Positions 5,260-64,000 of a stretch of 64,000 bases of DNA are shown in pieces. The DNA lies in the NCBI GenBank assembly GCA_963705255.1, contig OY970061.1, forward strand, positions 256,001 through 320,000, given 5' to 3'. The translations under genes and the position numbers were made by a program. A model generated the notes under the pieces. That model saw nothing but the letters and a program-made list of their open reading frames with translations. It ran no database searches and was not told where the DNA came from. Positions within the stretch are counted from its first letter, which is position 1; each line of letters starts with the position of its first letter. The stretch is from an uncultured Methanoregulaceae archaeon (GTDB lineage: Archaea > Halobacteriota > Methanomicrobia > Methanomicrobiales > Methanospirillaceae).

Positions 5260-6530
5260 ACCAGAGCCCCTACTCCCTTGAACGCGAGCTCGGCATGCGG
5301 TACTACGCGAGCGATGCCGAGGGGATCGGCGGGAGACTGCGGTCGGTGCCCGGGGACTTCCGGGTAGAGGAGATCCCCCTGCCGGAGAAAGGGGGGACGA
5401 GCGGGCCGTACCTGATCTGCACCCTCACCAAGACCAACTGGGAGCTCCAGCACGCAGTAAAAGAGGTAGCAAAACGGCTGGGTATCAGCCACCGGCGCAT
5501 CGGCTGGGCGGGTACGAAGGACCGGAACGCCGTGACCAGCCAGCGGATCTCGATCTACAATGTCACGGCTGAGCAGGTTGCAGGTGTACGGCTGAAGGAC
5601 ATTCTCCTTGAACCCCTCGGGAATGCGAACGAGGCTCTGTCGCTCGGTGACCTGCAGGGAAACCGGTTTGACCTCGTGATCCGCGAACCTGATACGCCCG
5701 ATCCCGGGGAACGTATCCAGGAAATTACGGAAACGGTCAGGGACGGCGTACCCAACTATTACGGCCTCCAGCGCTTCGGCGCCATCCGTCCGGTCACGCA
5801 CAAGGTAGGGGAATGGATCCTGCGGGGCGACTTTGAGCAGGCCGTGCTGACCTACATCGGGCTTGCCTATCCCGCCGAGACCGACACGGTGAAAGCGATC
5901 CGGTCGGAATTTTACCAGAGCCGCGACCCCGCGCCGGCGCTCCGCAGTCTCCCGGTCCAGATGAACTATGAACGTGCCATGCTCCATCACCTGCACGTCC
6001 ATGCCGGCGATTATAGCGGGGCGCTCCGGGAACTGCCGCCCAAGCTGCTCTCGATGTTCGTCTCCGCGTTCCAGTCGTACCTCTTCAACTGTGCCCTGAG
6101 CCTCCGGTTTGACGATGGATACGGGCTCAGCGATCCCGTGCCAGGAGACCGGCTGTTGTTTGCCAACGGGCGGACTGATACCGCTACCACATCAAACCTT
6201 GCTGCGGTCTCGTTGCATATCCGGCGGGGACGGTGCAGCATTGCGCTCTTCATGCCCGGCAGAGAAAAGATGGATCCGAAAACAGAAGGCGGGCGCGTGA
6301 TGGAGGAACTCCTGGCAGGGTATTCGATCACCCCGGAGGACTTCGGACACGCTTCAGCATTCGTGCACACGAAGTTCGAAGGCGCATGGCGGCCGATTGC
6401 GCTGAAAACGGAGATCGAATCTGCCCTTGAGGGAAGCAGCGTCCGGCTGAAATTCACCCTGCCCCCCGGCCACTACGCGACAACGGTCTGCCGCGAGTTC
6501 ATGAAGGCAGACCCGGTCCGGATGATCTGA
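5256..6530 (+). CDS. truD: tRNA pseudouridine(13) synthase TruD
   Basis: DFRVEE, AGTKDRNAVTSQ, GNRF, NYYGLQRFG, FTLPPGHYAT. Confidence 0.95.
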   Translation: MNQSPYSLERELGMRYYASDAEGIGGRLRSVPGDFRVEEIPLPEKGGTSGPYLICTLTKTNWELQHAVKEVAKRLGISHRRIGWAGTKDRNAVTSQRISIYNVTAEQVAGVRLKDILLEPLGNANEALSLGDLQGNRFDLVIREPDTPDPGERIQEITETVRDGVPNYYGLQRFGAIRPVTHKVGEWILRGDFEQAVLTYIGLAYPAETDTVKAIRSEFYQSRDPAPALRSLPVQMNYERAMLHHLHVHAGDYSGALRELPPKLLSMFVSAFQSYLFNCALSLRFDDGYGLSDPVPGDRLLFANGRTDTATTSNLAAVSLHIRRGRCSIALFMPGREKMDPKTEGGRVMEELLAGYSITPEDFGHASAFVHTKFEGAWRPIALKTEIESALEGSSVRLKFTLPPGHYATTVCREFMKADPVRMI

Positions 6531-47879: not shown

Positions 47880-48249
47880 TTTGGTTATGGAGTATGTGGA
47901 TTTTTCTTGAATATAAGGGGGAGGGGGAGAGAGTGAAACTAAAATCCCGGGCTTGGATTTTATGGAACCCAGGTCTTTCCGCCTATAGCGGGATTAATAT
48001 TTTCCGGGTGCTTATATCTCCTTACTATCATGAGCACGAAAGCGAGAATTACGGGAGTTCCCAGGACTCCTGTCGTGGCACCACGCACGAAGACCCGGTC
48101 AGTGCCGGACCGTGATGAAGAGGTGCACCTCTCCCCGGTCCAGCGGATGCGGGGAAAGATCTCTCTTTCGGATCCGGAAATGGTCCGCCGTATTATTTTT
48201 GATCCGTCCCTGGAGTCGTGACCGATGGTTGCGGGGTCCGGGAGTGACG

Positions 48250-48547
48250 CGACCATTTTCATTGATGCAAATATTTGCGACCAGGACAATCCGCTACACA
48301 CGGTGTAGCCAATTTCCTCCGGAGGGATCTCTTCCTTGCAGCAGCCACGGGGGAAGACAAGGAAAAACTGACGGAAGTTCCTGAGGTTCGTGACAGAAAA
48401 ACCGCACCGGAATTCACGTCTTAATTGTGCACTCAGTGCGTGCACAATCTGTTCGCCGTACCCTGCACGGTTCTCTCCAAGAATTTCACGGCGGATCCGA
48501 ACACCGATCCGCTCCATCAAGTCCTTACAATCCCCGCTTCCGGACAA
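48250..48547 (-). pseudogene. DUF1016/YhcG N-terminal remnant
   Basis: RAGYGEQIVHALSAQL...GFSVTNLRNFRQFF...LSWS, then similarity is lost. Confidence 0.7.
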
Positions 48548-48654
48548 ACACTCCTAAATCCCAGCCAAAACACACCCGGTCTCCGTGGGCTCTGGTGACG
48601 GAAAATGTATGAGAAAAAATGCATGCGGGGATACATGGTCTTTAAAAGAGAACA

Positions 48655-49188
48655 TCACGATCCCGGTGAAATCCGCTGGAGAGCATTCTTGAGATCGAGA
48701 TAGAGCGGGACGGTTTCACCCGGAGTCCGGATTGCCTGTTTGAATGAGAATTTTTTATAGAACTCAACGGCACTGTGCTTTGAATCCACCGTAATGATAC
48801 GGCAACCGACATATCGGGAGAGTGTGATGGAGATGGTGAAGATCTTCCTCAGCATACTCCGCCCGACCCCGAACCGCTCATACTCACTGTGCGTTGCCAG
48901 CCGTGCAATCTTCAGGGCCGGATACTTCCGGAAATGATAACTCTCTTCGCGGTCACATTCTTCGACAGCCCTTACTTCGATGCTGTCGTTGATGAGGGTG
49001 AAGTACCCGACAAGGTTCCCCTTCCAGAAAACCAGCCGCGTCACAGAAATCAGGTTGTTCTGGTTAACGAGTGCGTCATCCTTTAAAAATTCATCAAGTT
49101 CCGGTTCAGATGAATGAAACCCGGACAAATCATGATCTGCGTCCAGAAGGATAAATTCAAGTTCTTCAAAAGGGATGGGGGAGAGCAT
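48655..49188 (-). CDS. GNAT acetyltransferase, toxin-type
   Basis: F.S...LDEFLK.DA, VGYFTL, PALKIARLA, ITVDSK..AVEFYKKFSF. Confidence 0.85.
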   Translation of the reverse strand: MLSPIPFEELEFILLDADHDLSGFHSSEPELDEFLKDDALVNQNNLISVTRLVFWKGNLVGYFTLINDSIEVRAVEECDREESYHFRKYPALKIARLATHSEYERFGVGRSMLRKIFTISITLSRYVGCRIITVDSKHSAVEFYKKFSFKQAIRTPGETVPLYLDLKNALQRISPGS

Positions 49189-49202
49189 TCTAAAAGCACG
49201 CG

Positions 49203-49353
49203 TCAGTCAAGCCCGGCATGCTCTGCGTCGCGCTTCGCTTCACGCATAAGGTTCAGGCCTTCACGGGTAAATGTCGGATGCTCTGAGTACCTTCTGAAAC
49301 GCTATTGCATCATCGCCTTCGAGCACAAGCCCGATCTCAATTGGTTTTGCCAT
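49203..49353 (-). CDS. small putative antitoxin upstream of the GNAT gene (apparent frameshift ~49290)
   Basis: Manual translation MAKPIEIGLVLEGDDAIAFQK|YSEHPTFTREGLNLMREAKRDAEHAGLD*; ends 14 nt before the GNAT ATG. Confidence 0.5.
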
Positions 49354-49462
49354 AAGCATCTTCTCCTGAATTTTTCGTTGTTTTATTATATGCTCAGGGA
49401 ATTATATCAAAGCTCTTGTGGAGGAGGTTGTCCGTCAGTACGATTTTGGATGCCTTGATTTC

Positions 49463-49786
49463 TCAGATCCCCATCTTCCCGGGCAGGTCCCGGGCCCAAG
49501 CCGCGATCGCTGCCGGGTCCTTCATAACTTTTGCAAGGCCGACGACGAACCCGGCGACCGGCACCTTCGCGAGGTCATTGCGGTGCTGTTTCACGAACTT
49601 CCCCACGTCGCCGACCATCCTCCCCATGTACATCGGCCCCCCGATGACGACCGCGTTGTATCCCGCGAGCGATGCGACCGTCCCCACCTCCGCGACGTCA
49701 GCGGTGTGGCCGGCGGCCTGCAGTTCCTTCCCGATCGCCTGCGCAATCTCTGCGGTCGATCCCGGTGCACCCGAAACCACCGACAC
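49463..49786 (-). pseudogene. flavodoxin (HemG-like) copy 1, 5'-truncated and internally deleted
   Basis: GSTAEIAQAIG...GGPMYMG...KDPA joined directly to AIAAWARDLPGKMGI. Confidence 0.8.
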
Positions 49787-49818
49787 ATTAATAATCCTAA
49801 TCGTGATTAGTCCTAATC

Positions 49819-51177
49819 ATGATTAGAGAGTTCATCGACCGGGAGGAGGAGCGCCTGCTGCTTGAGCATGAGTGGCAGAGTGCCGGCGGGAGGCTCATCA
49901 TCCTCTACGGCCGGAGGCGGATCGGAAAGACCCGGCTTATCGATGAATTTATCCGGGACAAGCCTGGCATACTCTATATCGCAGAGGACGCATCCCCGCA
50001 TATCCAGATAGCCCAGCTCAAGGCCCGGTGTGCGGAGTATTTTGGCGATCCTCTCCTCGCCGGGCTGGATATCAGGACGTGGGAGCAGCTCTTTACCTAT
50101 CTCGCACAAAAACCGCTCACCAGGAGGACGTACCTTGTGATCGATGAGTTTACGTACCTGATCCGGAACGACCCCTCCATTCTTTCTGCGCTCCAGAAAG
50201 CCTGGGACCGGAGTATCACCGGCTCCGACTGGTGCCTTCTCCTCTCCGGGTCGATACTCTCGCTCATGAGTGATCTTGCCCTCTCGTCCACATCCCCGCT
50301 CTATGGCCGGAGGACGCGTGACCTGCTGCTCGGGCCGCTCCGGTTCTCCGATGCGAGAAAGTTTTTCCATTTCCCGTTCTCTGACACCCTGAAAGTGTAC
50401 CTGTCGATCGGAGGTGTGCCGGAGTATCTTCTCAAGGCTGGCGCGTATGAGGATTGCAACTCATTTTACAAAACCGAGTTTTTCAACCGGTACGGGTACT
50501 TTTACCACGAACCGTACTTTATCCTCTCGCAGGAGTTCCGGGAGCTCGAGGTGTACCAGTCCGTCCTCCACGCGGTTGCGCTTGGCAACACCGCCCCGAC
50601 AGCGATCGCCCAGTTCTGCGGTCTCGACACCCGCCATGTGTACCCGTACCTCGAATCCATGATCCGGCTGGGGCTCGTGGAAAAAGAGGTGCCGCTTCTG
50701 GGTAATCCACGGCAGGGGATATACCGCATCCGGGACCGGGTCTTTGATTTCTGGTACTGCTATGTGTTCCCTCGCAGGCAGGAGATCGAGACGGGGCATC
50801 CCGGTTCCGTACTCCCGGACATCAACCCGTTCTTCGGCAGGCAGTTCGAGGCGTTCGTGCGGGACGAGTACGCCGGGGTCGTTCTGGCGGGATACCGTAC
50901 CGGCCACTGGTGGTATAAGGAGGACGAGATCGATCTCGTGGCGGTCGACGATAATTCATCTACCGTTATCTTCGGTGAATGCAAATGGGGGGATGTCAGT
51001 CTTCAGCAGGCTAAAAAACTCCTCGCCCTCTTAAAAACAAAGTCAAAGCTCGTGCGTGCCGACAATTACCGCCACCGGAAGTACGCGCTGTTCTCTGCCG
51101 GGACAATTGAAGGGAAGGCCCGGTTGCGGGACGATGGCTATCTGGTTTTTGACAGCACTGACTTAGAAGGATTCTGA
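49819..51177 (+). CDS. archaeal ATPase with DUF234-like/PD-(D/E)XK C-terminus
   Basis: FIDREEE, GRRRIGKT, IDEF, SPLYGRRT, GGVPEY, EIDLVA...GECKW. Confidence 0.9.
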   Translation: MIREFIDREEERLLLEHEWQSAGGRLIILYGRRRIGKTRLIDEFIRDKPGILYIAEDASPHIQIAQLKARCAEYFGDPLLAGLDIRTWEQLFTYLAQKPLTRRTYLVIDEFTYLIRNDPSILSALQKAWDRSITGSDWCLLLSGSILSLMSDLALSSTSPLYGRRTRDLLLGPLRFSDARKFFHFPFSDTLKVYLSIGGVPEYLLKAGAYEDCNSFYKTEFFNRYGYFYHEPYFILSQEFRELEVYQSVLHAVALGNTAPTAIAQFCGLDTRHVYPYLESMIRLGLVEKEVPLLGNPRQGIYRIRDRVFDFWYCYVFPRRQEIETGHPGSVLPDINPFFGRQFEAFVRDEYAGVVLAGYRTGHWWYKEDEIDLVAVDDNSSTVIFGECKWGDVSLQQAKKLLALLKTKSKLVRADNYRHRKYALFSAGTIEGKARLRDDGYLVFDSTDLEGF

Positions 51178-51421
51178 TGAATCCTTCACGTCCTCGATAT
51201 TCTGATGAACATCTCTGACTTCGAAGAGTCCTGACGGACTCTTCCTGTCCTCGATATTCTGATGAACATCTCTGACTTCGAAGGATTCTGATGAATCCTT
51301 CACGTCCTCAAATCCTGCTGCACTCGATTTTTCTGAACTCGAAGGATTCTGATAAATCCTTCACGTCCTCGAATTTCGCTGCGCTCGATTCTTCGGATAT
51401 AGAAGGATTCTGATGAATCCT
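51166..51421. repeat. tandem array of five hairpin units (57-61 bp period)
   Basis: GAAGGATTC-TGAT-GAATCCTTC units at 51166, 51223 (variant), 51280, 51341 (one stem mismatch), 51402 (truncated). Confidence 0.9.
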
Positions 51422-51455
51422 GAGAATGGTGCGGTCCCGCAGCCGCTCCCCCGTT

Positions 51456-51713
51456 TCAGATCCCCATCTTCCCGGGCAGGTCCCGGGCCCAGGCCGCGAT
51501 CGCCGCCCAGTCGCGGAAGTCCCCGACCGGGGATTTTACTTTCTTGGTGATCCAGTTCTGGAACCACGAGAGTTTTTCAGGGTCCAGCCTGCCGGCGAAC
51601 ACGGTCCGGGCAACCGGCTGCAGCGGGGCGAGGGCGTCACGGAGTGCCTTCTCCGAGGCCGCGATCCCTGTCGGGTCCTCTGCACTATTGCGGCCGGTGA
51701 ATTCCCTCAGCAT
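51456..51713 (-). pseudogene. flavodoxin copy 2, 3' half only
   Basis: FAGRLDPEKLSWFQ...GDFRDWAAIAAWARDLPGKMGI; 3' end near-identical to copy 1. Confidence 0.8.
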
Positions 51714-51775
51714 CCGCGATTTTTATCCGGGTTGTCGTTTGCGTAGAAAAAAAGAGTGAGGTTTACGATTGGACT

Positions 51776-52234
51776 CTAGAGAAGATCTTCGATCTTCCGG
51801 ATCAGGACCTCCGCATGGCGGATCGCGGATTCCGCCTCCGTTTCCGAAATGGAACCGGCCGTATCATAGACCGAGCTGTGGCGCTTGCGTCGCATCCGGT
51901 CGAAGATGACTGCATCTTGGTTATCCAGAAAGAGCTCAGCGAATTTTACAACGGAGATGTGCTGGTTCGCACCGTCCGGGCGGTACCCTTTGGAAAACAT
52001 CAGTGCCCGGCCGGCCTGAAGAACTGCGTTATACGCGATGGTGTATGCCCAGTCATGATCCGTAGTGAGGATTGTGCGTGCTGTGCTGAGATCACGGTGG
52101 GCCAGTGCAATCGCATCCTTCACTTTTTTTCTTTCGGGACCGAGCCTTTTGATCAGGCCCTCCCGTTCAAGGAGTCGAAGACCTTCGTCTTCTCCTCTCT
52201 CATCCCTTCGGGATTCGGGATCTTCAATCATCAC
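51776..52234 (-). CDS. HEPN domain protein (toxin of an MNT-HEPN pair)
   Basis: AYNAVLQAGRAL, RRKRHSSVY; overlaps the upstream MNT gene. Confidence 0.85.
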   Translation of the reverse strand: MMIEDPESRRDERGEDEGLRLLEREGLIKRLGPERKKVKDAIALAHRDLSTARTILTTDHDWAYTIAYNAVLQAGRALMFSKGYRPDGANQHISVVKFAELFLDNQDAVIFDRMRRKRHSSVYDTAGSISETEAESAIRHAEVLIRKIEDLL

Positions 52235-52787
52235 AGGCTCCGCTTATCATGATCTTCTCTTCCTGCATTACATTCCTTACGAATGGATCCTTGTCCTTCT
52301 TCCGCTTTGTAAATTCCCGGGCGGTCATGAGCGTGTAATTGATCTCCCGGCCGGTGGCACGCTCGCAGGAATGGATGATGGGGATGAGCCGATCCTCCTC
52401 CACCGTTCCCACGATGAAGAGGTCGATGTCGCTTTTTTCACCGGCGGTCCCCTTTGCAAACGACCCATAGATGAAGACGCACGTGATCTCCTCACCGGCA
52501 ATGGCGTCCCTGATGATGCCGGCAACCCCTTCTGTCTTCAGCACGATCTTCTGGAGATCAGGATACAGGAAATGGCCGGTATTGACCGTGTAATACTGCT
52601 GGTTTCCTTTCTTCTGACCGGTAATGAGGCCGAAGGATTCGAGGTTTGCGAGCTCCCGGCGCACCGCATTGATATTCTCGGATGTCGTGCGGACGATCTC
52701 GCGGATGTAGAATTCGCTCCCCGGGTTGAGCAGGAAGAGCATGAGGAGCTTCACCCGGGTTTTTGATGAGATGAGCGCTTCCAGCAT
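52224..52787 (-). CDS. wHTH + minimal nucleotidyltransferase (MNT) antitoxin
   Basis: N-terminal HTH (YIREI..NAVRREL); IYGSFAKG...SDIDL. Confidence 0.9.
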   Translation of the reverse strand: MLEALISSKTRVKLLMLFLLNPGSEFYIREIVRTTSENINAVRRELANLESFGLITGQKKGNQQYYTVNTGHFLYPDLQKIVLKTEGVAGIIRDAIAGEEITCVFIYGSFAKGTAGEKSDIDLFIVGTVEEDRLIPIIHSCERATGREINYTLMTAREFTKRKKDKDPFVRNVMQEEKIMISGACDD

Positions 52788-52869
52788 GAATACATAATGT
52801 ATTCAATTGAGTAAAAAATGTATTCATTGCCCGATTCATGTCCCGGTACTTATGAGCGGTTTTCCCCTT

Positions 52870-53355
52870 TTTCACGCTCCCATCTTCCCAGGCAGCAATC
52901 GCGGCCCAGTCGCGGAAGTTGCCGACCGGGGATTTTACTTTCTTCGTGATCCACTTCTGGAACCACGAGAGTTTTTCCGGGTCCAGCCGGCGGCGAACAC
53001 GGTCCGGGCAACCGGCTGGAGCGGGGCGAGGGATGCATGGAGTGCCTTCTCCGCGTTTGCCATCGCTGCCGGGTCCTTCGAGACCGCCGCAAGGCCCACG
53101 GTGAACGCGGCGACCGGCACCTTCGCCAGACTATCGCGGTGCCGTTTCACGAACTTCCCGACATCCCCGACCCATCCTTCCCATGTACATCGGCCCACCG
53201 ATGACGACCGCGTGGTAGCCCGCGAGCGATGCGACGGTCGCCACCTCCGCGACATCTGCAGCGTGGCCGGCGGCCTGCAGTTCCTTTCCTATCGCCTGCG
53301 CAATCTCAGCGGTCGATCCGTTCTTCGATGCGTAGGCTATGAGGATGTGGGACAT
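52870..53355 (-). pseudogene. flavodoxin copy 3, near full length but frameshifted with an altered 3' end
   Basis: MSHILIAYASKNGSTAEIA... continues across ORFs 53131-53355 and 52935-53255. Confidence 0.8.
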
Positions 53356-53585
53356 GGTTTTTCACTTAATTGAAAATTGTGTGTTGGAGGGGATAAGGGT
53401 GGGGGGGTGTTGGAAAATAAATTGTGTTAACGATTCATGTTGAAATCATGTTGAAAAAATGTCGCGAGGTAGTCCTATGACTATGGAAAAACACTGGATA
53501 ACTCATAACTCAATAATCACTTTCACGCAACTCAAACTGAATAACTAAATTAAGTGACGTATCCAATAGATCCTGAGGTTGGGTA

Positions 53586-54624
53586 TTGAGTCCAAAAGAG
53601 ATCTTTTTTCAAAATGATCGGGTTCTTATTATAAATGATAGTATTTTCGAAACCAAACTTATCAAACCCGACTCTGTTGATCTGGTTGTGACATCGCCCC
53701 CCTATAATGTTGATATCAAATATAATTCGCACGATGATCAGATATCTTACGAAAAATACAAAGAGTTCAGTAAAGACTGGATGACCTGCTGCTACAAGTG
53801 GCTCAAAGATGATGGAAGATTCTGTCTGAATATACCTCTCGATAAAAATAAAGGTGGCCAGCAGAGTGTTGGTGCCGATTTAACAACGATTGCAAAAAAG
53901 ATCGGTTTTAATTATCATTCTACTATCATCTGGAATGAAGGAAATATTTCACGACGGACTGCCTGGGGTTCATGGTTGAGTGCTTCTGCACCCTACGTGA
54001 TTGCACCCGTTGAATTAATTGTCATTTTGTACAAAAAATACCTGGAAGAAGACAAGCGGTTCTCAAGAATCAGATATTTTACGACAGGATTTTTTGGATT
54101 GGACCAATGGGCTCTGGTCTTTTAGCGGAGAGAGTAAAAAGAAAATCGGACACCCTGCACCGTTCCCTGTCGAATTGCCAAAGCGATGTATGAAATTATT
54201 CAGTTTCAAAGGAGATACGGTTTTAGATCCTTTCCTCGGAAGTGGAACAACCCTTGTTGCGTCTTACCTCAATGACCGGAAAGGAATTGGAATTGATATC
54301 GATCCTCACTATTGTCAGATTGCGCTTGATCGTCTGAAAAAAGAAGGCGGAATGGGACAGACCAGCATCTCACAATACTTCACACAGCCCAAAACAAAAC
54401 CAAAAAGCAAGAAAACCGGCTTAACCCAAACGGATATTATTTTCCAATATTTCAAAGATCATCCATCACGATCCGTTACCTATGATGATGTCGGAGAATG
54501 GATCAAACAAGAGAGTGAAAAAAATTCTGTTATGGAAATCAAAGCTTTTGAAAAAATTATGAGGACTCTGGCAAAAGAAGGAAAAATTACCAAAATTGAC
54601 AAAGGCCTTTTCAAATACGAATAA
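53586..54624 (+). CDS. beta-class N4/N6 DNA methyltransferase with C-terminal wHTH; apparent frameshift at ~54035
   Basis: VTSPPYN, WNEGNISRRTAWGSW, HPAPFP, LDPFLGSGTT; split at an A6 run. Confidence 0.92.
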
Positions 54625-54734
54625 CCCGAATTGATTGCTACCCGGGCTTGTCTTTTTTCAATTAGGTTTATTTTAGTATAAATATAAACAAAGGTTTCTG
54701 ACAGAGTATTCATTCCACGAGATGGTGTCAAGCA

Positions 54735-55325
54735 ATGCCCGAACGAACTCAAAATCAGGAGCGCCAAGCATCCGTGAGCAGGGAAGGTGCAAAATTTGAA
54801 TTATATGTGAAAAATTCCTTGAATGATTCGTTTACCACTCAAAAGCAAAATATCCGAATATTGAATGGAAATGAAGTTTTCAAGGACCCGCATCTCAAAG
54901 ACCATTTTACAATACCTGTTCGGGGATTCAACAAGAACTGGGGTGATGTGGATCTCGTTGCAAAAGATCTTGACACCAATCATCCTATCGCATTAATTAG
55001 TTGTAAATTGAGTCTTCATGGACGGTTTTCTGAAACTCTTTTCTACTCGAAGATATATCGTGATAAAATACCTGATTTGAAAGTAGTTTTCGCAACACCG
55101 GATAAAGGAAGGCAGAGCCAACCCGGCATTTGGAAATCCGAATGGGGCACAACTCCAAACCCAACAAAAGATCGTGCTTTTGCGGAAACATTTCTCGATG
55201 GGGTTTACATTGATAATGAATATCGGATAAGTGAATGGGGATTAACTGGAGCGACCGTTCTTGGTGGAAAAATTAAGCCATTCGCTCAATTGGCCGGAGA
55301 TATTGAAAGTTGGAAAATTGTTTGA
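54735..55325 (+). CDS. putative type II restriction endonuclease (PD-(D/E)XK variant)
   Basis: GAKFE...GDVDLV...ISCKLSLHGR; directly downstream of the MTase. Confidence 0.75.
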   Translation: MPERTQNQERQASVSREGAKFELYVKNSLNDSFTTQKQNIRILNGNEVFKDPHLKDHFTIPVRGFNKNWGDVDLVAKDLDTNHPIALISCKLSLHGRFSETLFYSKIYRDKIPDLKVVFATPDKGRQSQPGIWKSEWGTTPNPTKDRAFAETFLDGVYIDNEYRISEWGLTGATVLGGKIKPFAQLAGDIESWKIV

Positions 55326-55447
55326 TAATCCATCTACAGACGAACATCTTATCAGTTTTTTAACCATTCTTCGAGTTCAGAATAACAATTTTTATTACCA
55401 AAATTTTTCAGAAATTATAATGTCATAGGAAACTCACAGTCAATGCA

Positions 55448-56323
55448 ATGGTAAATTTCGAAAACTGGTTTTTCAAATACAATACTTGGTCGTACAGCAA
55501 GCACCGGCTTTTTGATTTATGTAAAAGAAATTTTTATTACCGCTATATTGGGACTGCTCTAAAAGAGTCCACTGATTTCGATACTTATAAATTAAAACGG
55601 CTGAAGGACCTTAATTCAAAATATGCGTTAGAAGGACTATTGATCCATGGCGTTATCGAAAATCAGATTGGACAACATTACCTCGGAAGAGATCTGAACG
55701 AAGGTGGAGCAAAATCTCAGTTTGTCCAAAGAGTTGAGCAATACCGAAAAACGGCATGCGATATGATAACTGAATTTTTTAATGGACTTCCTAAAGATGA
55801 TGAATTCTTTGACAGAATTAGAGCCGAAGGCCAGGATAAAATTAGCATGTTTTTTGGTGTTATCTGGCCCCAATTAAAAGATCTCGAATACCTGAAACAT
55901 GAAGATTTTGACAAATTCAAAATCAACGACGTGGAAGTTACTGTCAAAGTGGATTATGTTAGCAAAACAAAAAATGATATAATTGTACTTACGGACTGGA
56001 AGACTGGCCAAGATAATGAAGAATATGAAAGTGATCTGCAGATTGGGACTTATGTACTCTGGGCGATGCAATATTATCAGAAAACGCCAATACAGATTCG
56101 AAATGAGCTTGCCTACTTGAAAACTGGCATGATGCGACAGACTGAATTCAACGACGAAGTTTTGGAAACAATTAGAAAAAAGATTGTCGACGATTTCGAG
56201 CAGATGAATTTGAATTATGAGATGAACAATTATCCTGCCTCTCCAGAACCTCGTAAATGCATTAGCTGCCAGTTTGGGACTGTTTGCCCGGAATCTAAGA
56301 TTAAAGATTATTTAAAAGGGTGA
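55448..56323 (+). CDS. Cas4/AddB-like PD-(D/E)XK nuclease with four-Cys Fe-S motif
   Basis: WSYSK...CKRNFYYRY, G.LIH, VKVDYV, LTDWKTG, Q...Y, CISCQFGTVC. Confidence 0.88.
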   Translation: MVNFENWFFKYNTWSYSKHRLFDLCKRNFYYRYIGTALKESTDFDTYKLKRLKDLNSKYALEGLLIHGVIENQIGQHYLGRDLNEGGAKSQFVQRVEQYRKTACDMITEFFNGLPKDDEFFDRIRAEGQDKISMFFGVIWPQLKDLEYLKHEDFDKFKINDVEVTVKVDYVSKTKNDIIVLTDWKTGQDNEEYESDLQIGTYVLWAMQYYQKTPIQIRNELAYLKTGMMRQTEFNDEVLETIRKKIVDDFEQMNLNYEMNNYPASPEPRKCISCQFGTVCPESKIKDYLKG

Positions 56324-56327
56324 TTTT

Positions 56328-58958
56328 GTGGATAAAAAAATGGAAATTTTGATCATATTTGCAAATATTTCTGAGAACAAGACCACAATCTCTTTAGACT
56401 CCTTGAGTAATATCCGACTTATTCTGAGTTTATTTCAAGAAGAAATAATCTCTGACGATGAATTCAATCAAGAACTTGAAAATCTTATTGAAGAGGGTTA
56501 TTTATCGAAATCTAGATCGGAAGAATTCGAAGTTACTCCACGTGGTCTCGACAATAGTCAAATCTATTGGAAGAACCCTTCTAGGCGAATCAGAGTATGA
56601 TCGATTAACACATTCTATTTTAGATTATACGAATTCCAAAGGAAAGCCTAAATATATTAGAATGCTTGGGGATCGCCTTAATAAACTTCAGCAGGCGAAA
56701 GCAAATAAGACGAGAAATGTTGATCCGAATTCCGTCCATCCGCTAGGAATTTTAATAAAAATTCAACACAATATAGAGCAACTTTTCACCAGCGAATTTA
56801 ATCTCATTGCTGATCATCTAAAAGATAATAAAATCTTTGAGAACGAAAAGAAAAACTTGCAAAACAAACTTTCTCGTCAGTATAACATTCCAATAATTGT
56901 TTTGCGATCTGGAAATACTCTTCTTGTAACAGGTCCGATCAGAATTGAATCGATTTCATTTTTCAACACAATTCTATCATCTGTAAAATGTTATCCGACT
57001 GAACGAAGGAAAATACCACAATGGAATAATGTAATTTTATATCATTTCGTTGAGAAAGCATTAAGAAAAATTGGGTTTTTACCTTCTGGACAATTTACCT
57101 TCACGAATTATTCAAACTGCAAACAGCATGAAGAAAACTCCGGTTATTTAGAATGTGATGCAATAAAATTGAGTTTCATCGACCTCAAGAACGACACGGT
57201 TTTTGTTTTCGTCGAATCATATCAGTCAATTCTTCATTCTTTACTTCAATTCATAGCTGTAAATTTAAAAAGTGGAACATCAAGAGATGCGATCATCGAT
57301 AAGATCAAAAAATTAAAATTGAGAGTAATTCCCTTTGGGAGGAGAATTAATTTTATAGATCTTGCCTGGGATAAAGATTTGAGTCATGAAAAAATCCCAG
57401 ATAGCATGAAAACATACTGTGAATACTGGGAAGACACACATGGGATTCTAATATCTCAAATAATTCAACCTATTATCATAACTCAAGCCTTCAACCGATC
57501 ATTATCCTATCCAGCCGAAATGATAAATATCGACAAACTTTCTATTGAACAGGCTTACGGGAATGTTCCAAAACGAAAGCCGAGATATGAGGACCTAGAT
57601 GAAAGATTTAATAAAATAAAATATCTCTCTAGTTTCAAGTCATATCGTGATGAAAATACAGAAAAATTTTTTAAATTGAATATTATCGAAAACTCTCCTT
57701 CTCTAAAAACGTTGATTGATCTAAACGGATTTAAAGGAACGGTTCAGATTTCACCACCATTATTGGAATTTTCAAGAGGGGCGTTTAGTATTGATCCTTT
57801 GGATGTCTTTAATCATGAATTTGGACCTGTTTGCGGGAAGAAAAATCTTGTAATCACTCATATCCTTACTCACGTGTCTATTAGTGACAGACAAATTGAT
57901 ATTTTCTGTGACGCAATAAGTCGAGCATTTAATATTTTTAATTTTGGCACAATAAGCAAGAATCCAGGAGCAAAAATAAAAAAATTCGATTCGATAACGA
58001 ACCTCAATGCTCTTGAAAATAAAGTCCGTGAATTTGAACCGTTAAACAATTCCAATGCAATTGGAATTGCAATAATTCCGGATGACTCGTCATTTTATTA
58101 CTCGTTAAAAAATATGTTTCCTGTCAAAACTGGTACGAGACTTCAAATTGTTAAAATGTCATCATTCGATAAAATAATTTCATCTAATTTTCCGGGTATG
58201 AAGCTTCTCAGCTCTAAATATTTTTATTAAAGCATTGAAAACAAATGAAGCCGTATGGACATTAGCAACATCTGCGGGGTCTCTCGAAAGAAAAATCCTT
58301 ATTCTTGGGTATTGGTTTCAGTCAAAATCCGTATGAAGGTAAAATCAGTAAATGCGCTACAGTGATGCATGACTCCCACGGAGCAAAAATAACTTGGAAA
58401 GTGTTTGCAACCCCCCAACAAAAAAGAACAATCGATGTAATTTGGTTTGATAATTTATTAACAAGAATCCACGATATCGTCGATTCTGAAAAACCATCTC
58501 GAATCGTTTGTTATCGAACTGGAGAATTGTTCCCAACGGAAATGGATGCCTTAAAAATTGCAATAAAAAAATGTCAATGGCTTGATTCGATAAAATTATC
58601 ATTTATTTCAATAATTGATGCATCGAATTGCCGGTTTTTCAAAAGAAATGATAGAAAGTTGAATCTACCGGCGGGATATGGAATAATAATTAATGACAAA
58701 GAAGCTTTTCTCTCCACATCAAATTATGATAGTCGTGGGTTGCGGCAGGGAACTGTGATGCCAGTTCGAATAAAAAATGAACTTGGTGATGATCTGATAA
58801 CAAATATCCTCATGGAATACCATGACCTGACCTACCTAAACTGGCAAACTCCATTTACTACTGCAAAACATCCACTGGTTGTAACAATTGCAAATCGCTT
58901 TGCGGAACTCACGAGAGAAGGAGTGCCCACGGAGAACACATTTTATTTGGATTTATGA
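56328..58958 (+). CDS. ago: long prokaryotic Argonaute, predicted catalytically inactive, apparent N-terminal wHTH; apparent frameshifts at ~56575, ~58209 and ~58280-58308
   Basis: PAZ TYCEYWEDTHGI...QPII...YPAE; MID YYSLK, LQIV, LNIFIK..VWTL; PIWI GIGFS, YRTG, QGTVMP, LTYLNW, HPLVVTIAN. Confidence 0.85.
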
Positions 58959-59912
58959 CGGTCACAGTAATTTCAGACGAAATAATATCAGCCTTGTCAA
59001 CTCTGGCACCCTCAATAGATCCAGCAAAAGCAAAATTGGAGATAGATCCAATTTCAATCGAATTCTCAAATTTTTTCAGCTGAACCTCTTGGATTAATCG
59101 TAATTGAATTTATCCAAGAAACCGTGAAAGATGGAAACTATTCATTTTTAATTCCAAATAAGTGTCCGGATAGAAAAGAGTTCGATAGAATAATTTATTC
59201 ATTGTACTCCCAAAAGAGACATGAAAAATTATCTTACTTGCTGGATATTTACCATTTTTTCTGGATTAAACACCCGGATATAGAAACAAGTGCATTATTC
59301 GATTCTCTAAAAAAAATCGAGGAATCGAGAACAATAATTTCGAAAAAAACTATTCTCAAAATTTGTTCAGAATGCTCATCAGATTCTCGCGATAATCCAT
59401 GTTGTAAATCGACAGATCGAAATCTCCTTGAAATTACGGATTGTTCATTACATGAAAATGTTGGGGCAGTTATCCGTTTCAACCAACATATGGAGATTTA
59501 TGTAAAAAACCAATTGAACAAATCAGGCATAAAAACAGTTGGTTGGGAAAAGGAACGATATGGAAAAGAAATCTGCACAAGTGTAACATATCATTGTGAC
59601 GGTGAACCAATTGAGATGGATACAATCGGTATCTCAACACCTCTTGCAGTATTATTAATCGAAGTAAAGACAGCGAAGAATACTTCCATGAATGAAATTA
59701 GAAAGACGGAAAATAAGTTTGAATCGATAATTTCCAAGATCAATAAGATCTCTAATCGAACAATCCCCTTTTTAAAAATTTTTGTTACGAGCGGCGAATT
59801 CGATCCGAATCTACCAATAAAAGCATACCAGAGAAAAAATTGGGATTTTATTGACAGATCAAAGGTTACGAAAATAAACGAAGAGTTTGAGAAAATTAAA
59901 AAATCACTTTAA
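58955..59912 (+). CDS. Argonaute-associated Zn-ribbon + PD-(D/E)XK (Mrr/NERD-like) nuclease; apparent frameshift at ~59075
   Basis: ATGA overlap with the ago stop; MTVTVISDE...; removing one T from a T-run joins ORF 59124-59912 (CSEC, EMDTIG...LIEVKT). Confidence 0.7.
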
Positions 59913-59960
59913 TTATTTGAGTTTGACACAGGTTACATTAAAAATTAATTTTATTGATCA

Positions 59961-61547
59961 TTAAATGTCGTAGACGCCTGAATCGGGGACAGAGAACTCG
60001 GCGTTTGCACCGTTATAAAATGAGATATCTTCGTCTTTGAGAATTTTGAAAAATGGATCTTCCTCAAGAATTTCTTCCGAAGCAATCAACCATCCCTTAT
60101 TCACGGCTTCATATGCTAATAGCCAATGATCATCATATAACTGTTCTTTAACTAAGAACTTCATCCAAATATTCTCGTTTAAATCATCTTTTATTAATCC
60201 GATATTTCTCATGTCCAACGCAATTAGGGCTACTATAGGATTGTCATTTTTCGAAAGAATTTCTGAAACATCATTTTCCATTACAAAATTCATTTCTTTT
60301 GCCAACCACAATGCCCAAGCGATTTCAAAATCATTTGAATATTTGCTATGGAACCGGATCAATTCAGAAATCGTCTCTCCAATTCTATCGATTTTTCCTT
60401 CATAATTAATATCTTTGAGACGCAACAAAATTTCTACAACGTTTGGAATGCACGAGCTTTGAACTTGCATCGATTTCAACAACAACGATTCAAATAATGG
60501 AATATTATCATCAAATATTTTTTTATTTCTAACGCGTATAATCCCATATTTTAAAACAAAATCGTCAGGAAATAATGCACAATACTCATTCACTCGACTG
60601 AAATAATTTATGAGATCCGTTTTTTGAGTTTTAATATTATTCGAAGAATTCTCAGGAATCCTAAAATTAAATTGTCGAATACCGGGTACCCATATGGGTT
60701 CCAATATGTGTGGGACTTCGCATATTTTTATTTTACTGGGGTTCACCTCTAATTCAAAATTTTTTAAAATTTTTTGTAATTTGGTGAGAGCTTCTTCGGC
60801 TACATATAAATCTTGAAAAAAAAGGAAATAATCGTCAATAATCCGAATTCCTTTTAATGGTTCATTCAATTGTTTTTCTAATTCAATATCTACTGCAGTA
60901 GCAATTATCTCCGCTACTATCACAGAAGAATCCGGTCCGATTGGAATCCCAATTGTCTGTCCGTCTCTAGTTCCTCTCAAACATCTATCAAGATCATTTC
61001 CAAAAAGAGATCGATTATTACGTTCACGTTTAGCAATTGCTTTGCCATGAAGTGCCCAAGCTATACTATGAGTATAGATTGTATCATAATACCTCGAAAT
61101 ATCCGCCCTCAACATATGTCTAAATTGGGTGGATCTTAAAGCAATTTCTTGCTCAAAATTTACCTTATCTTTAACAACATCGAAAGAACGTTTTTGTTTA
61201 TCTCTAATAATTGGAAAACAAGGTCTTGATATTGAGATAGGAGACTTTTTTACATGATCCTTTATTTTATCCCAATTTTTTTCAATATAATAACAAAGCA
61301 TCAATTGATAAAATGGGTTTGGAATTGTCAAATTTCGTCGAAGATTTTTAACTCTGGGAACTGAAAATAAACAACTTTTGGATCCTGGTATATTTTTTTT
61401 TGATTTTTTAGTCCATTGTTTAATAGATCTCTCTAATTCGCTCAAAGGTAACAAATTCATTTTTTCTGCAAGATCATTGGTTTGAAAAGGAGGTGGAACT
61501 TCAACGGGGAAATACCCCCAATTAATAAGATCCTTTGCTGTGAGCAT
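59961..61547 (-). CDS. AbiK-like (UG/Abi class 1) defence reverse transcriptase with helical C-terminus
   Basis: GYFP..PPPF, RR...IPNP, DISRYYDTIYTHSIAWA, GIPIGP, RIIDD, HWLLAYE. Confidence 0.88.
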   Translation of the reverse strand: MLTAKDLINWGYFPVEVPPPFQTNDLAEKMNLLPLSELERSIKQWTKKSKKNIPGSKSCLFSVPRVKNLRRNLTIPNPFYQLMLCYYIEKNWDKIKDHVKKSPISISRPCFPIIRDKQKRSFDVVKDKVNFEQEIALRSTQFRHMLRADISRYYDTIYTHSIAWALHGKAIAKRERNNRSLFGNDLDRCLRGTRDGQTIGIPIGPDSSVIVAEIIATAVDIELEKQLNEPLKGIRIIDDYFLFFQDLYVAEEALTKLQKILKNFELEVNPSKIKICEVPHILEPIWVPGIRQFNFRIPENSSNNIKTQKTDLINYFSRVNEYCALFPDDFVLKYGIIRVRNKKIFDDNIPLFESLLLKSMQVQSSCIPNVVEILLRLKDINYEGKIDRIGETISELIRFHSKYSNDFEIAWALWLAKEMNFVMENDVSEILSKNDNPIVALIALDMRNIGLIKDDLNENIWMKFLVKEQLYDDHWLLAYEAVNKGWLIASEEILEEDPFFKILKDEDISFYNGANAEFSVPDSGVYDI

Positions 61548-61652
61548 TAATGAGTATTCAAATCAAGCAAGGAAAATACTATCTTTTTTTATTTTGCTTT
61601 CAGTAATCAAACAGAGACCCATGTTGCTGTGATCCTCAAATCCCCGGAGAAA

Positions 61653-61910
61653 TTATTCCCCTTTCCCTTCAATAATCGCGATAACTTTCTTTCCGGTATC
61701 AGTTATCCGGTAATATCGGCCCGTGTGTTCATCCGGTGTCAGGCATTCAACGAGGCCCTTTTCGGTAAGTTCAATCATGACTCTGCTGATCGTAGAGCGG
61801 TCCATAACCAGTTGTTTGGCGAGATTCGTTGGCGAGTTGGGTTTATGAAGAGCTTTAAGCACCAGTCTCCTGGTCTTCCCTCTACCGACAAAACTCACAA
61901 GGTCAAACAT
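61653..61910 (-). CDS. small wHTH transcriptional regulator upstream of the RT
   Basis: SPTNLAKQL..DRSTISRV..EL.EKGLV...YRITDTG. Confidence 0.85.
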   Translation of the reverse strand: MFDLVSFVGRGKTRRLVLKALHKPNSPTNLAKQLVMDRSTISRVMIELTEKGLVECLTPDEHTGRYYRITDTGKKVIAIIEGKGE

Positions 61911-62060
61911 TTAATGAAAAATGGGGTGATTATTGTGATGAATTTGCGTAGTGATGATGTTGTACTGATGTGGTAAATTTTATCGCCTTCCCCGGCCAAT
62001 ACCTACTCCGGTGCCTGGTGAACATAAATCGAATAAATGTGGATGTGAAAATATCCCGGA

Positions 62061-62220
62061 GCGGTCACCCCCGGCTGTAAACTTTGTTCCGACCTGGAAC
62101 ATTGTCGCTCCGCAGGTGCTTCACCAGACACCGCATCGGGGAGATTCTTCGTCAAGGATCTCCCCAATTTTAGAGTAATTCGAAGAACTCCTACGAGTTC
62201 TTCTCATCCTCTCATAACCT
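62061..62220 (+). repeat. structured direct repeat, copy 1
   Basis: GCGGTCACCCCCGGCT...TGTTCCGA..GGAACA.TGTCGCTC...CCAGACACC shared with 63252-63435. Confidence 0.8.
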
Positions 62221-62662
62221 CATGGCTATGAGAGTGCTCCCAAATAACCCCGGTACGGCCCCGGATTCCCTGTTTTTCCGGAGACAGAGACAGTAATTCC
62301 GGAAAATGAGACAGTAATTCATGCATTTCCGGTCATTTTTACACCTGAAACCATGAGACGCTATTTGGGTGCATTTGGACACGAAAAAGAGGGTGGATCG
62401 GGTTTCAGCCCGTCTTTGCATATTTTCTGGAATGGAAGAGGCTTCCTGATGATTATGGGGGGTGTCGCGATTTTACGTCGGAGAAGGGATACCTTAAGAG
62501 TACTATCCCCCCGGCAGAGCCCCCTCCGGCGATCACCGGCGCAGGAGTGCCCTGCCACTCTCAACCGCGATGGCAAAAACACATGAGCCAATGTGAGTCC
62601 GGTCCCCACAACAGGCCGGGCAAAAAATGGAAAATAATCGGAAGATGTAAAATACGTTTTTG

Positions 62663-62881
62663 TTATTCAGCCTGGACTGCAACGAATGTTGCCGATGAAT
62701 GGGATTTTGGGACTGGCATACCATCCTCAATAAGCCCGCGGATATGCATCTCGATCGCTTCATGCATCCGCTCTTCCGTTTCCTCGCGGGTTTTTCCGGT
62801 TGCAATACAACCAGGAAGATCCGGAGAGTATGCCGAAAAATTCTTTCCGGCTTTTTCAATTACAATCAGGAACCTGTGCAT
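62663..62881 (-). CDS. hicB: HicB antitoxin (short form)
   Basis: AYSPDLPGCIATGKTREE...EAIEMH. Confidence 0.88.
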   Translation of the reverse strand: MHRFLIVIEKAGKNFSAYSPDLPGCIATGKTREETEERMHEAIEMHIRGLIEDGMPVPKSHSSATFVAVQAE

Positions 62882-63123
62882 TGTATGATCATTCCTTGAA
62901 TTTCTGAAGAATTGAGCATAGCGAAATTCGAAGACGAGAAGAGTTCATAAGAACTCTTCGAAGGTTCTTGCTTAGAGATACTGTTCATCGTACCGGGGGC
63001 AAGATCATCTGAAAAGTGTCCGGCAATGGTGACCCGTCCGGATTTTTCCTTATGCTTGTACTGACGATGACTTCCCTTCGATGCAACACTATACCATCCA
63101 TCATCCTCGATTAATTTGATCAT
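62866..63123 (-). CDS. hicA: HicA toxin; 3' end altered by a hairpin-repeat insertion, usual MKVRE start reads CTG
   Basis: IEDDGW...KGSHRQYKH..K.GRVTIAGH...L.PGT.NSI.KQ. Confidence 0.8.
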   Translation of the reverse strand: MIKLIEDDGWYSVASKGSHRQYKHKEKSGRVTIAGHFSDDLAPGTMNSISKQEPSKSSYELFSSSNFAMLNSSEIQGMIIQCTGS

Positions 63124-63251
63124 CTCGCGGACTTTCAGGATGGATCCTCCGGGTGGTTGTTGATCAGTCTTTGTTGTTGTTGCTCATTAGGTTTTTCTGC
63201 CAGTTTCTTTAAAAAGAGATTTGGCTGGTTTGCAATCGTCCATTGTGCCCT

Positions 63252-63435
63252 GCGGTCACCCCCGGCTTTCAACATATGTTCCGATCCGGAACAGTGTCGC
63301 TCATCAGGGACTTCGCCAGACACCAGGACGTTGGGGGATTTTTCGTCGGAGATCCCCCGCCTTTTCAGGGTACTCTCCTGTCCCTTGCGGGAAGCAAGAG
63401 TAGTTAGAAGAATCTGATGATTCCTCTCACAATCA
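63252..63435 (+). repeat. structured direct repeat, copy 2
   Basis: Homologous to 62061-62220 with hairpins conserved. Confidence 0.8.
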
Positions 63436-63537
63436 AACTCCAACGATAAGATGGGAGAAGCCAGGCCGACCTTCAACTTCGGAGAATTCCGATGCGATAC
63501 GGGGAAGTGATGAAAACGGGGAGTTGACAGCTGCCTG

Positions 63538-64000
63538 CTATTTCTCCCCGCTGATCATCCGTACCGTTGCTTCCTTTGTCAGCAGGGTCATCTGGTGAAT
63601 TGCAATCGCGTTCAGTTTTTCCAGGCGCTCAGGCTGGGACAGTTTGTCGCTGATGAAATGTGCGTTGAGGTTCTCGAGATTCGATAAACACACGAGTTGT
63701 GAAATGTCCGCATAATCCCGGATATTTCCTTTCTTCCCCGGGTTCCTTTCCCTCCACTCCTTTGCGTTCATGCCGAACAACGACATATTCAGGACATCGG
63801 CTTCGGAAGCATAGATCGCATTGATCTGCGGTTTTGTCAGCAGGGGAGGGATAAGGTTCTCCTGCACGGCATCAGTATGGATCCGGTAATTTATTTTTGC
63901 AAGGTTCCGGCGGATGTCCCATCCAAGACTTTTCCGCTCCTCTTCCTTGAGACGCTGGAACTCCTTGATGAGGTAAAGCTTGAACTCGACCGAGATCCAT
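63538..64000 (-). CDS. KilA-N domain-containing protein, C-terminal part (5' end outside the window)
   Basis: WISVEFKLYLIKEFQRLK...KINYRIHTDAV.ENLIP...YASEADVLN...GNIRDYA...SNLENLNA. Confidence 0.8.
   Translation of the reverse strand, partial: WISVEFKLYLIKEFQRLKEEERKSLGWDIRRNLAKINYRIHTDAVQENLIPPLLTKPQINAIYASEADVLNMSLFGMNAKEWRERNPGKKGNIRDYADISQLVCLSNLENLNAHFISDKLSQPERLEKLNAIAIHQMTLLTKEATVRMISGEK

Follow-up and report, generated by a model that had tools for sequence, protein, structure and literature searches.

In a 64,000-nucleotide stretch of DNA from an uncultured Methanoregulaceae archaeon (hereafter the window; positions 256001-320000 of a 2.60-Mb, single-contig genome), the segment 56328-57540 is the 5' part of a single gene for a catalytically dead long Argonaute of ~876 codons (56328-58958). 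Our preferred reading, to which we give a probability of about 0.6, is that this one dead-Argonaute gene carries an adaptor module at its N terminus and lies in mid-operon between the genes for two nucleases, the three proteins making up a sensor-effector system. The architecture of the protein, the fusion of the module, the loss of the catalytic residues and the conservation of the operon are matters of direct observation and are set out below, followed by the predicted contact between the module and the downstream nuclease.

A fused module precedes a complete Argonaute

We modeled a relative of the window's protein, P0002, which is 58% identical to the middle piece of the window's gene, with AlphaFold2 from a 105-row alignment (pLDDT 94.6, pTM 0.92). 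In the model, residues 1-66 adopt a predicted winged-helix fold (helices 2-12, 19-33 and 39-51, strands 55-57 and 63-65); three further helices follow (67-81, 83-99 and 103-121), and beta structure is assigned by DSSP from residue 124 on. When solved Argonautes were aligned to the model with VIA-align, residues 1-748 of CbAgo (6qzk_A) covered model residues 127-873 (Z 34.0, rmsd 5.9, 673 residues aligned) and residues 2-685 of TtAgo (5xow_A) covered 121-873 (Z 32.9). Since canonical Argonautes align solely to residues 121/127-873, residues 122-873 account for a complete Argonaute, to which residues 1-121 are an addition. The end-to-end alignment of CbAgo and TtAgo, together with a Pfam Piwi match (1.9e-17), gives the N-L1-PAZ-L2-MID-PIWI architecture. 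The top Foldseek matches of the model are CbAgo, human Ago1, CpAgo, Siwi and KmAgo, all of them full-PAZ Argonautes; RsAgo and EcAgo are absent from the sequence search of the PDB and from the best 50 rows of Foldseek and VIA-align, an absence that is not in itself evidence.

The initial annotation had seen a winged helix-turn-helix (wHTH)-like pattern in the frame-0 open reading frame (ORF) 56328-56600 and had read it as an added N-terminal domain of the Argonaute, leaving room for a separate small gene. The pattern is present in that frame, the model (residues 1-66) bears out the fold, and the domain is both extra and fused: in 30 of 30 full-length relatives (815-895 amino acids [aa]) the N-terminal module and the Argonaute form one ORF, including single ORFs of 874 and 882 aa at the loci L006 and L020. 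More distant Argonautes of ~760-790 aa lack ~120 residues, as judged from alignments that start at query residues ~223-236 and at their own residues ~100-115.

The PAZ domain is full-sized and the PIWI domain is dead

Two further proposals of the initial annotation, a full PAZ motif and an inactive PIWI domain, hold across the family. The Pfam PAZ profile matches P0003 at residues 306-403, that is, over ~100 residues and profile positions 2-105 of 123, with scores of 21-22 bits in P0002 and P0003 and of 29.3 bits, above the cut-off, in P0021. Sequence searches of the PDB return the PAZ domains of Piwi proteins (E 2.7e-4 to 6.5e-3), and the PAZ motif of the window (Table 1) is conserved across the family. 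The modeled domain has a predicted helix at 359-367 and a predicted hairpin at 375-391. With positions 2-105 of the profile covered, this is a PAZ of the full-sized, two-subdomain type, not the reduced PAZ* that is a trait of almost all long-B Argonautes.

In the MID domain, the 5'-end pocket is kept: in 47 family rows, its K, Q and K are at least 80% conserved and its Y at least 50%, a motif of the Y-K-Q-K type. In the PIWI domain of the window, glycine replaces the first catalytic aspartate (GIGFSQ, 58308-58325) and threonine the third (YRTG, 58512-58523). The first aspartate has become G, A or S in every family row, and among the rows displayed the GE of the glutamate finger is replaced by R-T/Y and the third aspartate by T, A, K or R. 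None of the displayed rows has a DEDX tetrad, the fourth position of which cannot be aligned reliably.

The frame breaks of the assembled gene

In the assembled window the Argonaute is spread over four pieces (frame 0 to 56548, frame 1 to ~58209, frame 2 to ~58280 and frame 0 to 58958), the frame-0 ORF 56328-56600 being followed by a frame-1 ORF at 56458-58230, whereas in relatives of 873-879 aa one chain spans the four pieces. Frame 0 matches the relatives up to TPRG, which ends at 56548, and frame 1 resumes with STIVKSIG at 56548-56571; the frame-0 text between TPRG and the stop at 56598-56600 is out of frame. A single frameshift near 56575 had been proposed to join the winged helix to the Argonaute; the break exists, but it lies at ~56546-56548, about 27 nucleotides upstream, and is one of three.

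A search of sequencing runs found the stretch in five metagenome runs and listed no RNA run with it. Four runs of one study (X1-X4), whose contigs are taken to be short-read derived from their Nextera-type adapter ends, were compared with the window over 53500-59200. Across these 5.7 kb, a single substitution (58848) and six indels separate the contigs from the window. A base of the window is missing from the contigs at 54033 in X1, X2 and X3; at 56546 in X1, X3 and X4 (all three runs that cover the site); at 58209 in X1 and X2 (both covering runs); at 58280 in X1, the X2 contig stopping 3 nucleotides away and being uninformative; and at 59077, within the third gene of the operon, in X1. The sixth indel consists of three more bases (TTT) behind 57625 in X1, where the window shows a one-residue gap relative to P0003. 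All five single-base differences are thus extra bases in the window, each of the six indels mends the frame or closes a gap relative to the relatives, four of them occur at TCTC/CTCT and the other two next to A6 or T6 runs. The completeness of the genome is 89.5%, as compared with 96-99% in 11 genomes of the same genus.

Because near-identical short-read contigs lack one base at each covered break, the breaks are probably errors of the assembly consensus and not a property of the organism; for the join between winged helix and Argonaute, this check covers the short-read contigs of all three runs that span it. Programmed frameshifting was also considered and is rejected, as the contigs do not have the extra bases. 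Whichever way the breaks are read, the gene in its natural form is one uninterrupted ORF.

The winged helix is acidic

To obtain a view of the window's own domain, residues 1-69 (56340-56548) were folded separately with AlphaFold from 41 rows (pLDDT 88.8). The prediction (helices 2-11, 19-33 and 39-51, strands 55-57 and 63-65) has the same DSSP pattern as the full-length model, namely three helices and then a beta-hairpin wing. The best 50 VIA-align rows are all winged-helix domains (Z 9.2-7.1), headed by the WHB domain of Cdc53 (Z 9.2, rmsd 1.3 over 61 of the 69 residues) and including MukF (8.7), Nse (8.3), ORC2 (8.2), Scc1 (8.0) and RosR (7.8); the best among them are domains that bind proteins (cullin WHB, MukF, Nse and kleisin). 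Foldseek likewise returns winged helices, with weak E values (0.08-0.4; TM 0.55-0.72), and at the sequence level Pfam HTH_45 comes up below its cut-off (E 0.004-0.011).

The domain is acidic in all 41 rows (net charge -10 to 0, pI 4.1-6.5), the window's copy being the most acidic (net charge -10, pI 4.1), with a third helix rich in D and E. Neither a basic or polar recognition helix nor a basic surface, the marks of a DNA-binding wHTH, is found, and the acidity of every row argues against binding of the operator type, so that DNA binding by the winged helix is doubtful.

The operon has a conserved order

The gene order Cas4-family nuclease, Argonaute, zinc-ribbon PD-(D/E)XK nuclease is conserved. 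The Cas4-like gene stands directly upstream of the Argonaute at 9 of the 10 loci that have upstream DNA (L016 being the exception), and the third gene directly downstream at all 11 loci that have downstream DNA. The third gene often overlaps the Argonaute stop codon, as its ATG does in the window. Taken together, the operon is a conserved, rare and uncharacterized Argonaute-nuclease variant with a fused adaptor module.

The Cas4-like protein matches Pfam PDDEXK_1 (3.3e-18), Cas_Cas4 (6.7e-06; 26.7 bits against a cut-off of 22.7) and, over its full length, the PADLOC model Aga_Cas4-like_Nuc (2.2e-11). Its invariant residues (C25, C271, C274, C280, D169, D183-W-K185, Q198 and Y202, in eight of eight rows) include the D...DxK and QxxxY motifs and the one N-terminal and three C-terminal cysteines of Cas4 proteins. 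The third protein, of about 320 aa, is built of an N-terminal part, a zinc ribbon (C137, C140, C152) and a C-terminal PD-(D/E)XK domain with D..E-V-K; its invariant residues in our alignment (A4) are the three cysteines, E183, D225, E239 and K241, and the E-V-K is present in the window's copy, which looks 262 aa long owing to the break at 59077. It has no match at threshold in Pfam, PADLOC or NCBIfam, and a search of its profile against solved chains, with E up to 10, gave nothing beyond two rows at chance level. Weak leads come from the Protein Atlas clusters Mrr_cat (0.91) and Card1_endonuc (0.87).

Two of the related loci are disrupted. At L015, a stop-rich insert of ~0.9 kb (5561-6492), which may be a mobile element, follows about residue 205 of the Argonaute; at L016 (1-5000), what is left of the Argonaute is its last 136 codons, followed by the third gene, and unrelated ORFs occupy the 5 kb upstream.

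The helix after the wing is predicted to dock onto the third protein

We predicted a complex of three chains, in which residues 1-125 of the Argonaute, as the scored partner, were combined with the Cas4-like protein and the third protein. The predicted interface scores (ipSAE) are 0.66, 0.67 and 0.67, against 0.00 for the best of three controls; 116 of 157 solved complexes attain the same score mark, as do 2 of 215 mismatched pairs. At least 97% of the contacts agree between the docking runs, and the pLDDT of the partner is at least 78. When the third protein is replaced, the score drops to 0.00, which points to this protein, rather than the Cas4-like enzyme, as the predicted partner. The predicted interface joins Argonaute residues 52, 67-72, 74-76 and 79-80 to residues 76-105 of the third protein, and it takes in G69, the sole invariant residue of the module (within its T..G.AL motif), as well as L92 and L96, which are invariant in the partner. 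The prediction supports docking of the helix after the wing onto the third protein. The initial annotation had suggested a DNA-binding or autoregulatory domain, an idea that finds no support in an acidic domain for which the complex prediction points to protein docking instead.

The family forms a separate inactive clade

A profile of eight relatives, searched against 1.84 billion representatives (E <=0.001), gave 127 hits, among them the thirty full-length proteins that share the N-terminal region. In a FastTree tree of the MID-PIWI region (96 rows, none of them labeled, the program being one that readily joins long branches), the family forms one clade of 41 rows with a local support of 99 among 55 other rows. 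Both scored aspartates are kept by 49 of these 55, eukaryote-type sequences included, and GE is kept by those other rows in which the glutamate-finger region is aligned. The tree depicts a separate inactive clade, its unlabeled rows giving no formal long-A or long-B placement. The family's own clade and the aspartates of the other rows fit a loss of PIWI activity separate from that of the RsAgo/EcAgo type. The inference of the initial annotation, an independently inactivated Argonaute of long-A type, fits all of the indirect evidence, the tree rows being unlabeled.

The family is a rare one. Of 400 other genomes sampled from the phylum, 2 have a member, and none of the 11 same-genus genomes does; a search of genome contigs for related loci gave a single one (L006), and one bacterial metagenome-assembled genome, labeled Methylomonas, also has it.

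The surrounding island

The operon lies in a low-GC island crowded with defense genes (53.5-61.6 kb), in which the GC content is 33-39%, compared with ~58-60% across the window. All 11 same-genus genomes are without the island, as searched for by the Argonaute profile, and no tRNA gene was found at its edges (48000-64000). The features of the island and the parts of the Argonaute gene are collected in Table 1.

Table 1. Positions in the window of the island's genes, the parts of the Argonaute gene and its frame breaks
Feature	Position	Strand	Remarks
N6/N4 DNA methyltransferase, in two frames	53586-54125 and 54019-54624		
BsaWI-like restriction endonuclease	54735-55325		
Cas4-family PD-(D/E)XK nuclease, 291 aa	55448..56323	+	Gene 1 of the operon
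Argonaute, all pieces	56328-58958	+	
Argonaute: start and acidic winged helix	56328..56548	+	GTG 56328 or ATG 56340; predicted winged helix, residues 1-66 = 56340-56537; frame 0
Argonaute: three long helices, residues 67-121	56548..56703	+	Frame 1; T..G.AL motif at predicted docking surface
Argonaute: N domain and linker L1	56704..57237	+	Approximate bounds; CbAgo/TtAgo structural alignment
Argonaute: full-sized PAZ	57238..57540	+	Motif 57415-57522
Argonaute: linker L2 and MID	57541..58250	+	5'-end pocket of the Y-K-Q-K type; TTT deficit behind 57625, break at 58209
Argonaute: dead PIWI	58251..58958	+	Frame 2, then frame 0; break at 58280; Pfam Piwi 6.3e-14
Frame break 1	56546		Extra base relative to short-read contigs; TCTC run
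Frame break 2	58209		Extra base relative to X1 and X2 contigs
Frame break 3	58280		Extra base relative to X1 contig
Third gene, ~318 aa, nuclease	58955..59912	+	ORF in the window 59124-59912
DRT4-type reverse transcriptase	59961-61547	-	PADLOC Drt4 1.1e-170
85-aa winged-helix protein	61653-61910	-	Pfam HVO_A0261_N 37.6 bits, above cut-off

At the left end of the island, the type II N6/N4 methyltransferase (53586-54624) and the BsaWI-like endonuclease form a restriction-modification pair. The methyltransferase is broken at an A-run (54033), and with one A fewer, as in three of the short-read runs, it becomes a single ORF. On the other side of the operon, a DRT4-type reverse transcriptase adjoins the Argonaute operon in the window and also in the loci of its two closest relatives (L007, 8662-10281; L018, 1257-2726), and so the two seem to travel together. 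The 85-aa winged-helix protein at the right edge may be a regulator. Just beyond the island lies a HEPN and nucleotidyltransferase gene pair (51776-52787, minus strand; Pfam HEPN 4.7e-09, Polbeta and NTP_transf_2 both ~1e-09).

Discussion

In the sensor-effector system that we propose, the Argonaute would bind a 5'-phosphorylated guide, as the retention of the MID pocket and the PAZ domain suggests, and would recognize invader nucleic acid without cutting it. Through the helix after the wing, the N-terminal module would hold on to the downstream nuclease, which target binding may activate, by analogy with the long-B Argonaute-nuclease (BPAN) systems. The Cas4-family enzyme may make or trim the guides, much as ACE1 does for cyanobacterial long-A Argonautes. 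The docking is a prediction from modeling; the type of guide, the activation and the outcome for the cell we infer.

Several observations weigh against this reading. As to the breaks being assembly errors, the depths of the short-read contigs are just 3-6, and three of the six indels come from X1 alone. P0001, a protein of 629 aa marked as the window's own, passes break 1 and ends at break 2. No internal stops occur in five long core genes elsewhere in this genome (PF00133, four matches; PF00562, one), so that indel errors are not pervasive and seem concentrated in the AT-rich island. The best solved match of the Cas4-like protein, the probable ACE1 chain 9iac_A, has an E value of just 0.035, and the likeness of the third protein to the BPAN nuclease bAgaN is one of architecture and motif only, as the protein has no detectable similarity to solved chains. 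Finally, the docking used an isolated 125-residue fragment, whose helix may pack against the body in the whole protein, and the calibration of the complex tool is only rough for our own alignments and for three chains.

Some of these points feed an alternative in which the breaks are real and the island is decaying, with the Argonaute, the methyltransferase and the third gene as pseudogenes: the window has five single-base frame breaks within 5.7 kb, P0001 shares break 2, the core genes are intact, and relatives do decay, as seen in the Argonaute split by the insert at L015 and in the 136-codon remnant at L016. Yet the six indels outnumber the single substitution, every single-base one is an extra base in the window, their TCTC/CTCT and A6/T6 contexts are the pattern of consensus errors and not of decay, and the completeness of the assembly falls short of that of its 11 congeners, all of which makes decay an unlikely explanation. 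The stop at 56598-56600 in the assembled window could also be taken to end a small winged-helix gene of its own upstream of the Argonaute, and proteins of 100-201 aa that match the N terminus alone do exist, although these may be contig-end fragments; with the module fused in every full-length relative, with the single ORFs at L006 and L020 and with short-read contigs that abolish the break, this idea is refuted for practical purposes, and we leave it only a negligible chance.

The role of the winged helix and the class of the Argonaute allow other readings as well. The domain could bind nucleic acid, either an operator, and so be autoregulatory, or the distal end of the guide-target duplex: its fold is that of a winged helix, DtxR/IdeR, RosR, Fur and LexA are among its structural matches, there are the sub-threshold HTH_45 hints, and PMC6299218 reports N-terminal DNA-binding domains on 15 long prokaryotic Argonautes (pAgos). 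We think this improbable for a domain that is basic in none of the 41 rows, has a D/E-rich third helix, finds its top VIA-align matches among protein-binding domains and is given a protein partner by the complex prediction. The whole could, in turn, be an ordinary long-B BPAN system with a PAZ of the usual reduced kind, for it combines, as long-B systems do, catalytic loss with a co-encoded effector, its downstream nuclease has a D..EVK motif like that of EcbAgaN, and PADLOC files the model of the upstream nuclease under "Class II." Against this stand the PAZ of ~100 residues with nearly the whole Pfam profile, when that of EcAgo is hairpin-like and spans ~60 residues (PMC13535254) and PAZ* is reported for almost all long-B Argonautes (PMC6299218); the extra 121-residue module; the Cas4-family partner, which PMC12094033 ties to long-A subclades; the aspartates kept by nearly all of the nearest detectable relatives; and the PADLOC matches, in which pAgo_II covers only the C-terminal ~140 residues (1.5e-10) as against 3.6e-46 for the generic PDLC02436. 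An ordinary long-B system is, in our judgment, a distinctly poor candidate.

A bolder version of the preferred sensor-effector reading, which we put forward tentatively and at less than even odds, is that the family is a distinct, uncharacterized class of Argonaute defense with an origin separate from long-B, its ancestors having been slicing Argonautes of the full-PAZ (long-A) type; it would have lost cutting and gained the acidic winged-helix stalk, which would tether and gate the zinc-ribbon PD-(D/E)XK effector, with the Cas4-family enzyme feeding in guides. If so, there would be a second, convergent route from cutting an invader to sensing it and triggering an effector, and one system would combine parts that have until now been described separately, in APACE and in BPAN. 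Slicing long-A Argonautes are known to have Cas4 partners; here such a partner is joined with the effector idea around a dead full-PAZ Argonaute, and the fused module adds a predicted docking site for the effector. Should the docking hold, it would offer a testable handle on how target recognition reaches the effector, and the sensor-effector design would have evolved more than once. For the low-GC islands of this assembly, a practical consequence of the probable indel errors is that intact defense genes look like pseudogenes.

Comparison with known systems

A literature search turned up no account of a dead Argonaute that has a winged-helix extension and stands between two nucleases. Makarova et al. 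did note one inactivated long pAgo adjoining a Cas4-like nuclease (PMC2743648). Among the long pAgos in which Ryazansky et al. (2018) list N-terminal Schlafen, lambda-repressor-like and OB-fold domains (15 proteins; PMC6299218), an extra domain likewise precedes a PAZ-containing long pAgo; the acidic winged helix with its helical stalk is of a type that does not appear in that list and, unlike those domains, is probably not DNA binding. Table S1 of the same paper has a row for an Archaeoglobus fulgidus protein (WP_048095815.1, 892 aa) of similar size and domain positions, entered as longA with a normal PAZ (316-420), a PIWI domain (661-882) and no catalytic tetrad; it is known to us as a table row only, and its MID type is RK, not YK. 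The 895-aa haloarchaeal rows of that table, entered as longA with a tetrad, were considered too and probably do not belong to this Argonaute family.

In APACE1, a slicing long-A Argonaute is paired with ACE1, a Cas4-family guide-processing enzyme that binds its Argonaute; such ACEs are reported to associate with two long-A subclades, and ~21% of long-A pAgos are without the tetrad (PMC12094033). The operon in the window resembles APACE1 in placing a Cas4-family nuclease (D-DxK and four cysteines) beside a full-PAZ long Argonaute, and the Cas4-like protein has its weak match to 9iac_A. It differs in that the APACE1 Argonautes keep DEDD and cut, whereas D, E and D are lost here, and in the presence of the third gene.

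In BPAN, as PMC10620215 and PMC13535254 describe it, a dead long-B Argonaute works with bAgaN, whose N-terminal domain engages the Argonaute and whose C-terminal D-EVK nuclease is released upon target recognition; EcbAgaN has this same layout, with the D-EVK in a PD-(D/E)XK domain (PMC13535254). The likeness to the present operon is close in outline: downstream of a dead long Argonaute comes a nuclease with a C-terminal PD-(D/E)XK domain and D..EVK, the N-terminal part of the effector engages the Argonaute (here by prediction), and the expected logic, by analogy, would again be that guide-directed recognition turns on a collateral nuclease. Unlike BPAN, however, the family in the window has a full PAZ in place of the ~60-residue hairpin, a winged-helix and three-helix module and an upstream Cas4-family nuclease, its effector contains a zinc ribbon and has no detectable sequence similarity to solved chains, and the predicted docking goes through the module added to the Argonaute.

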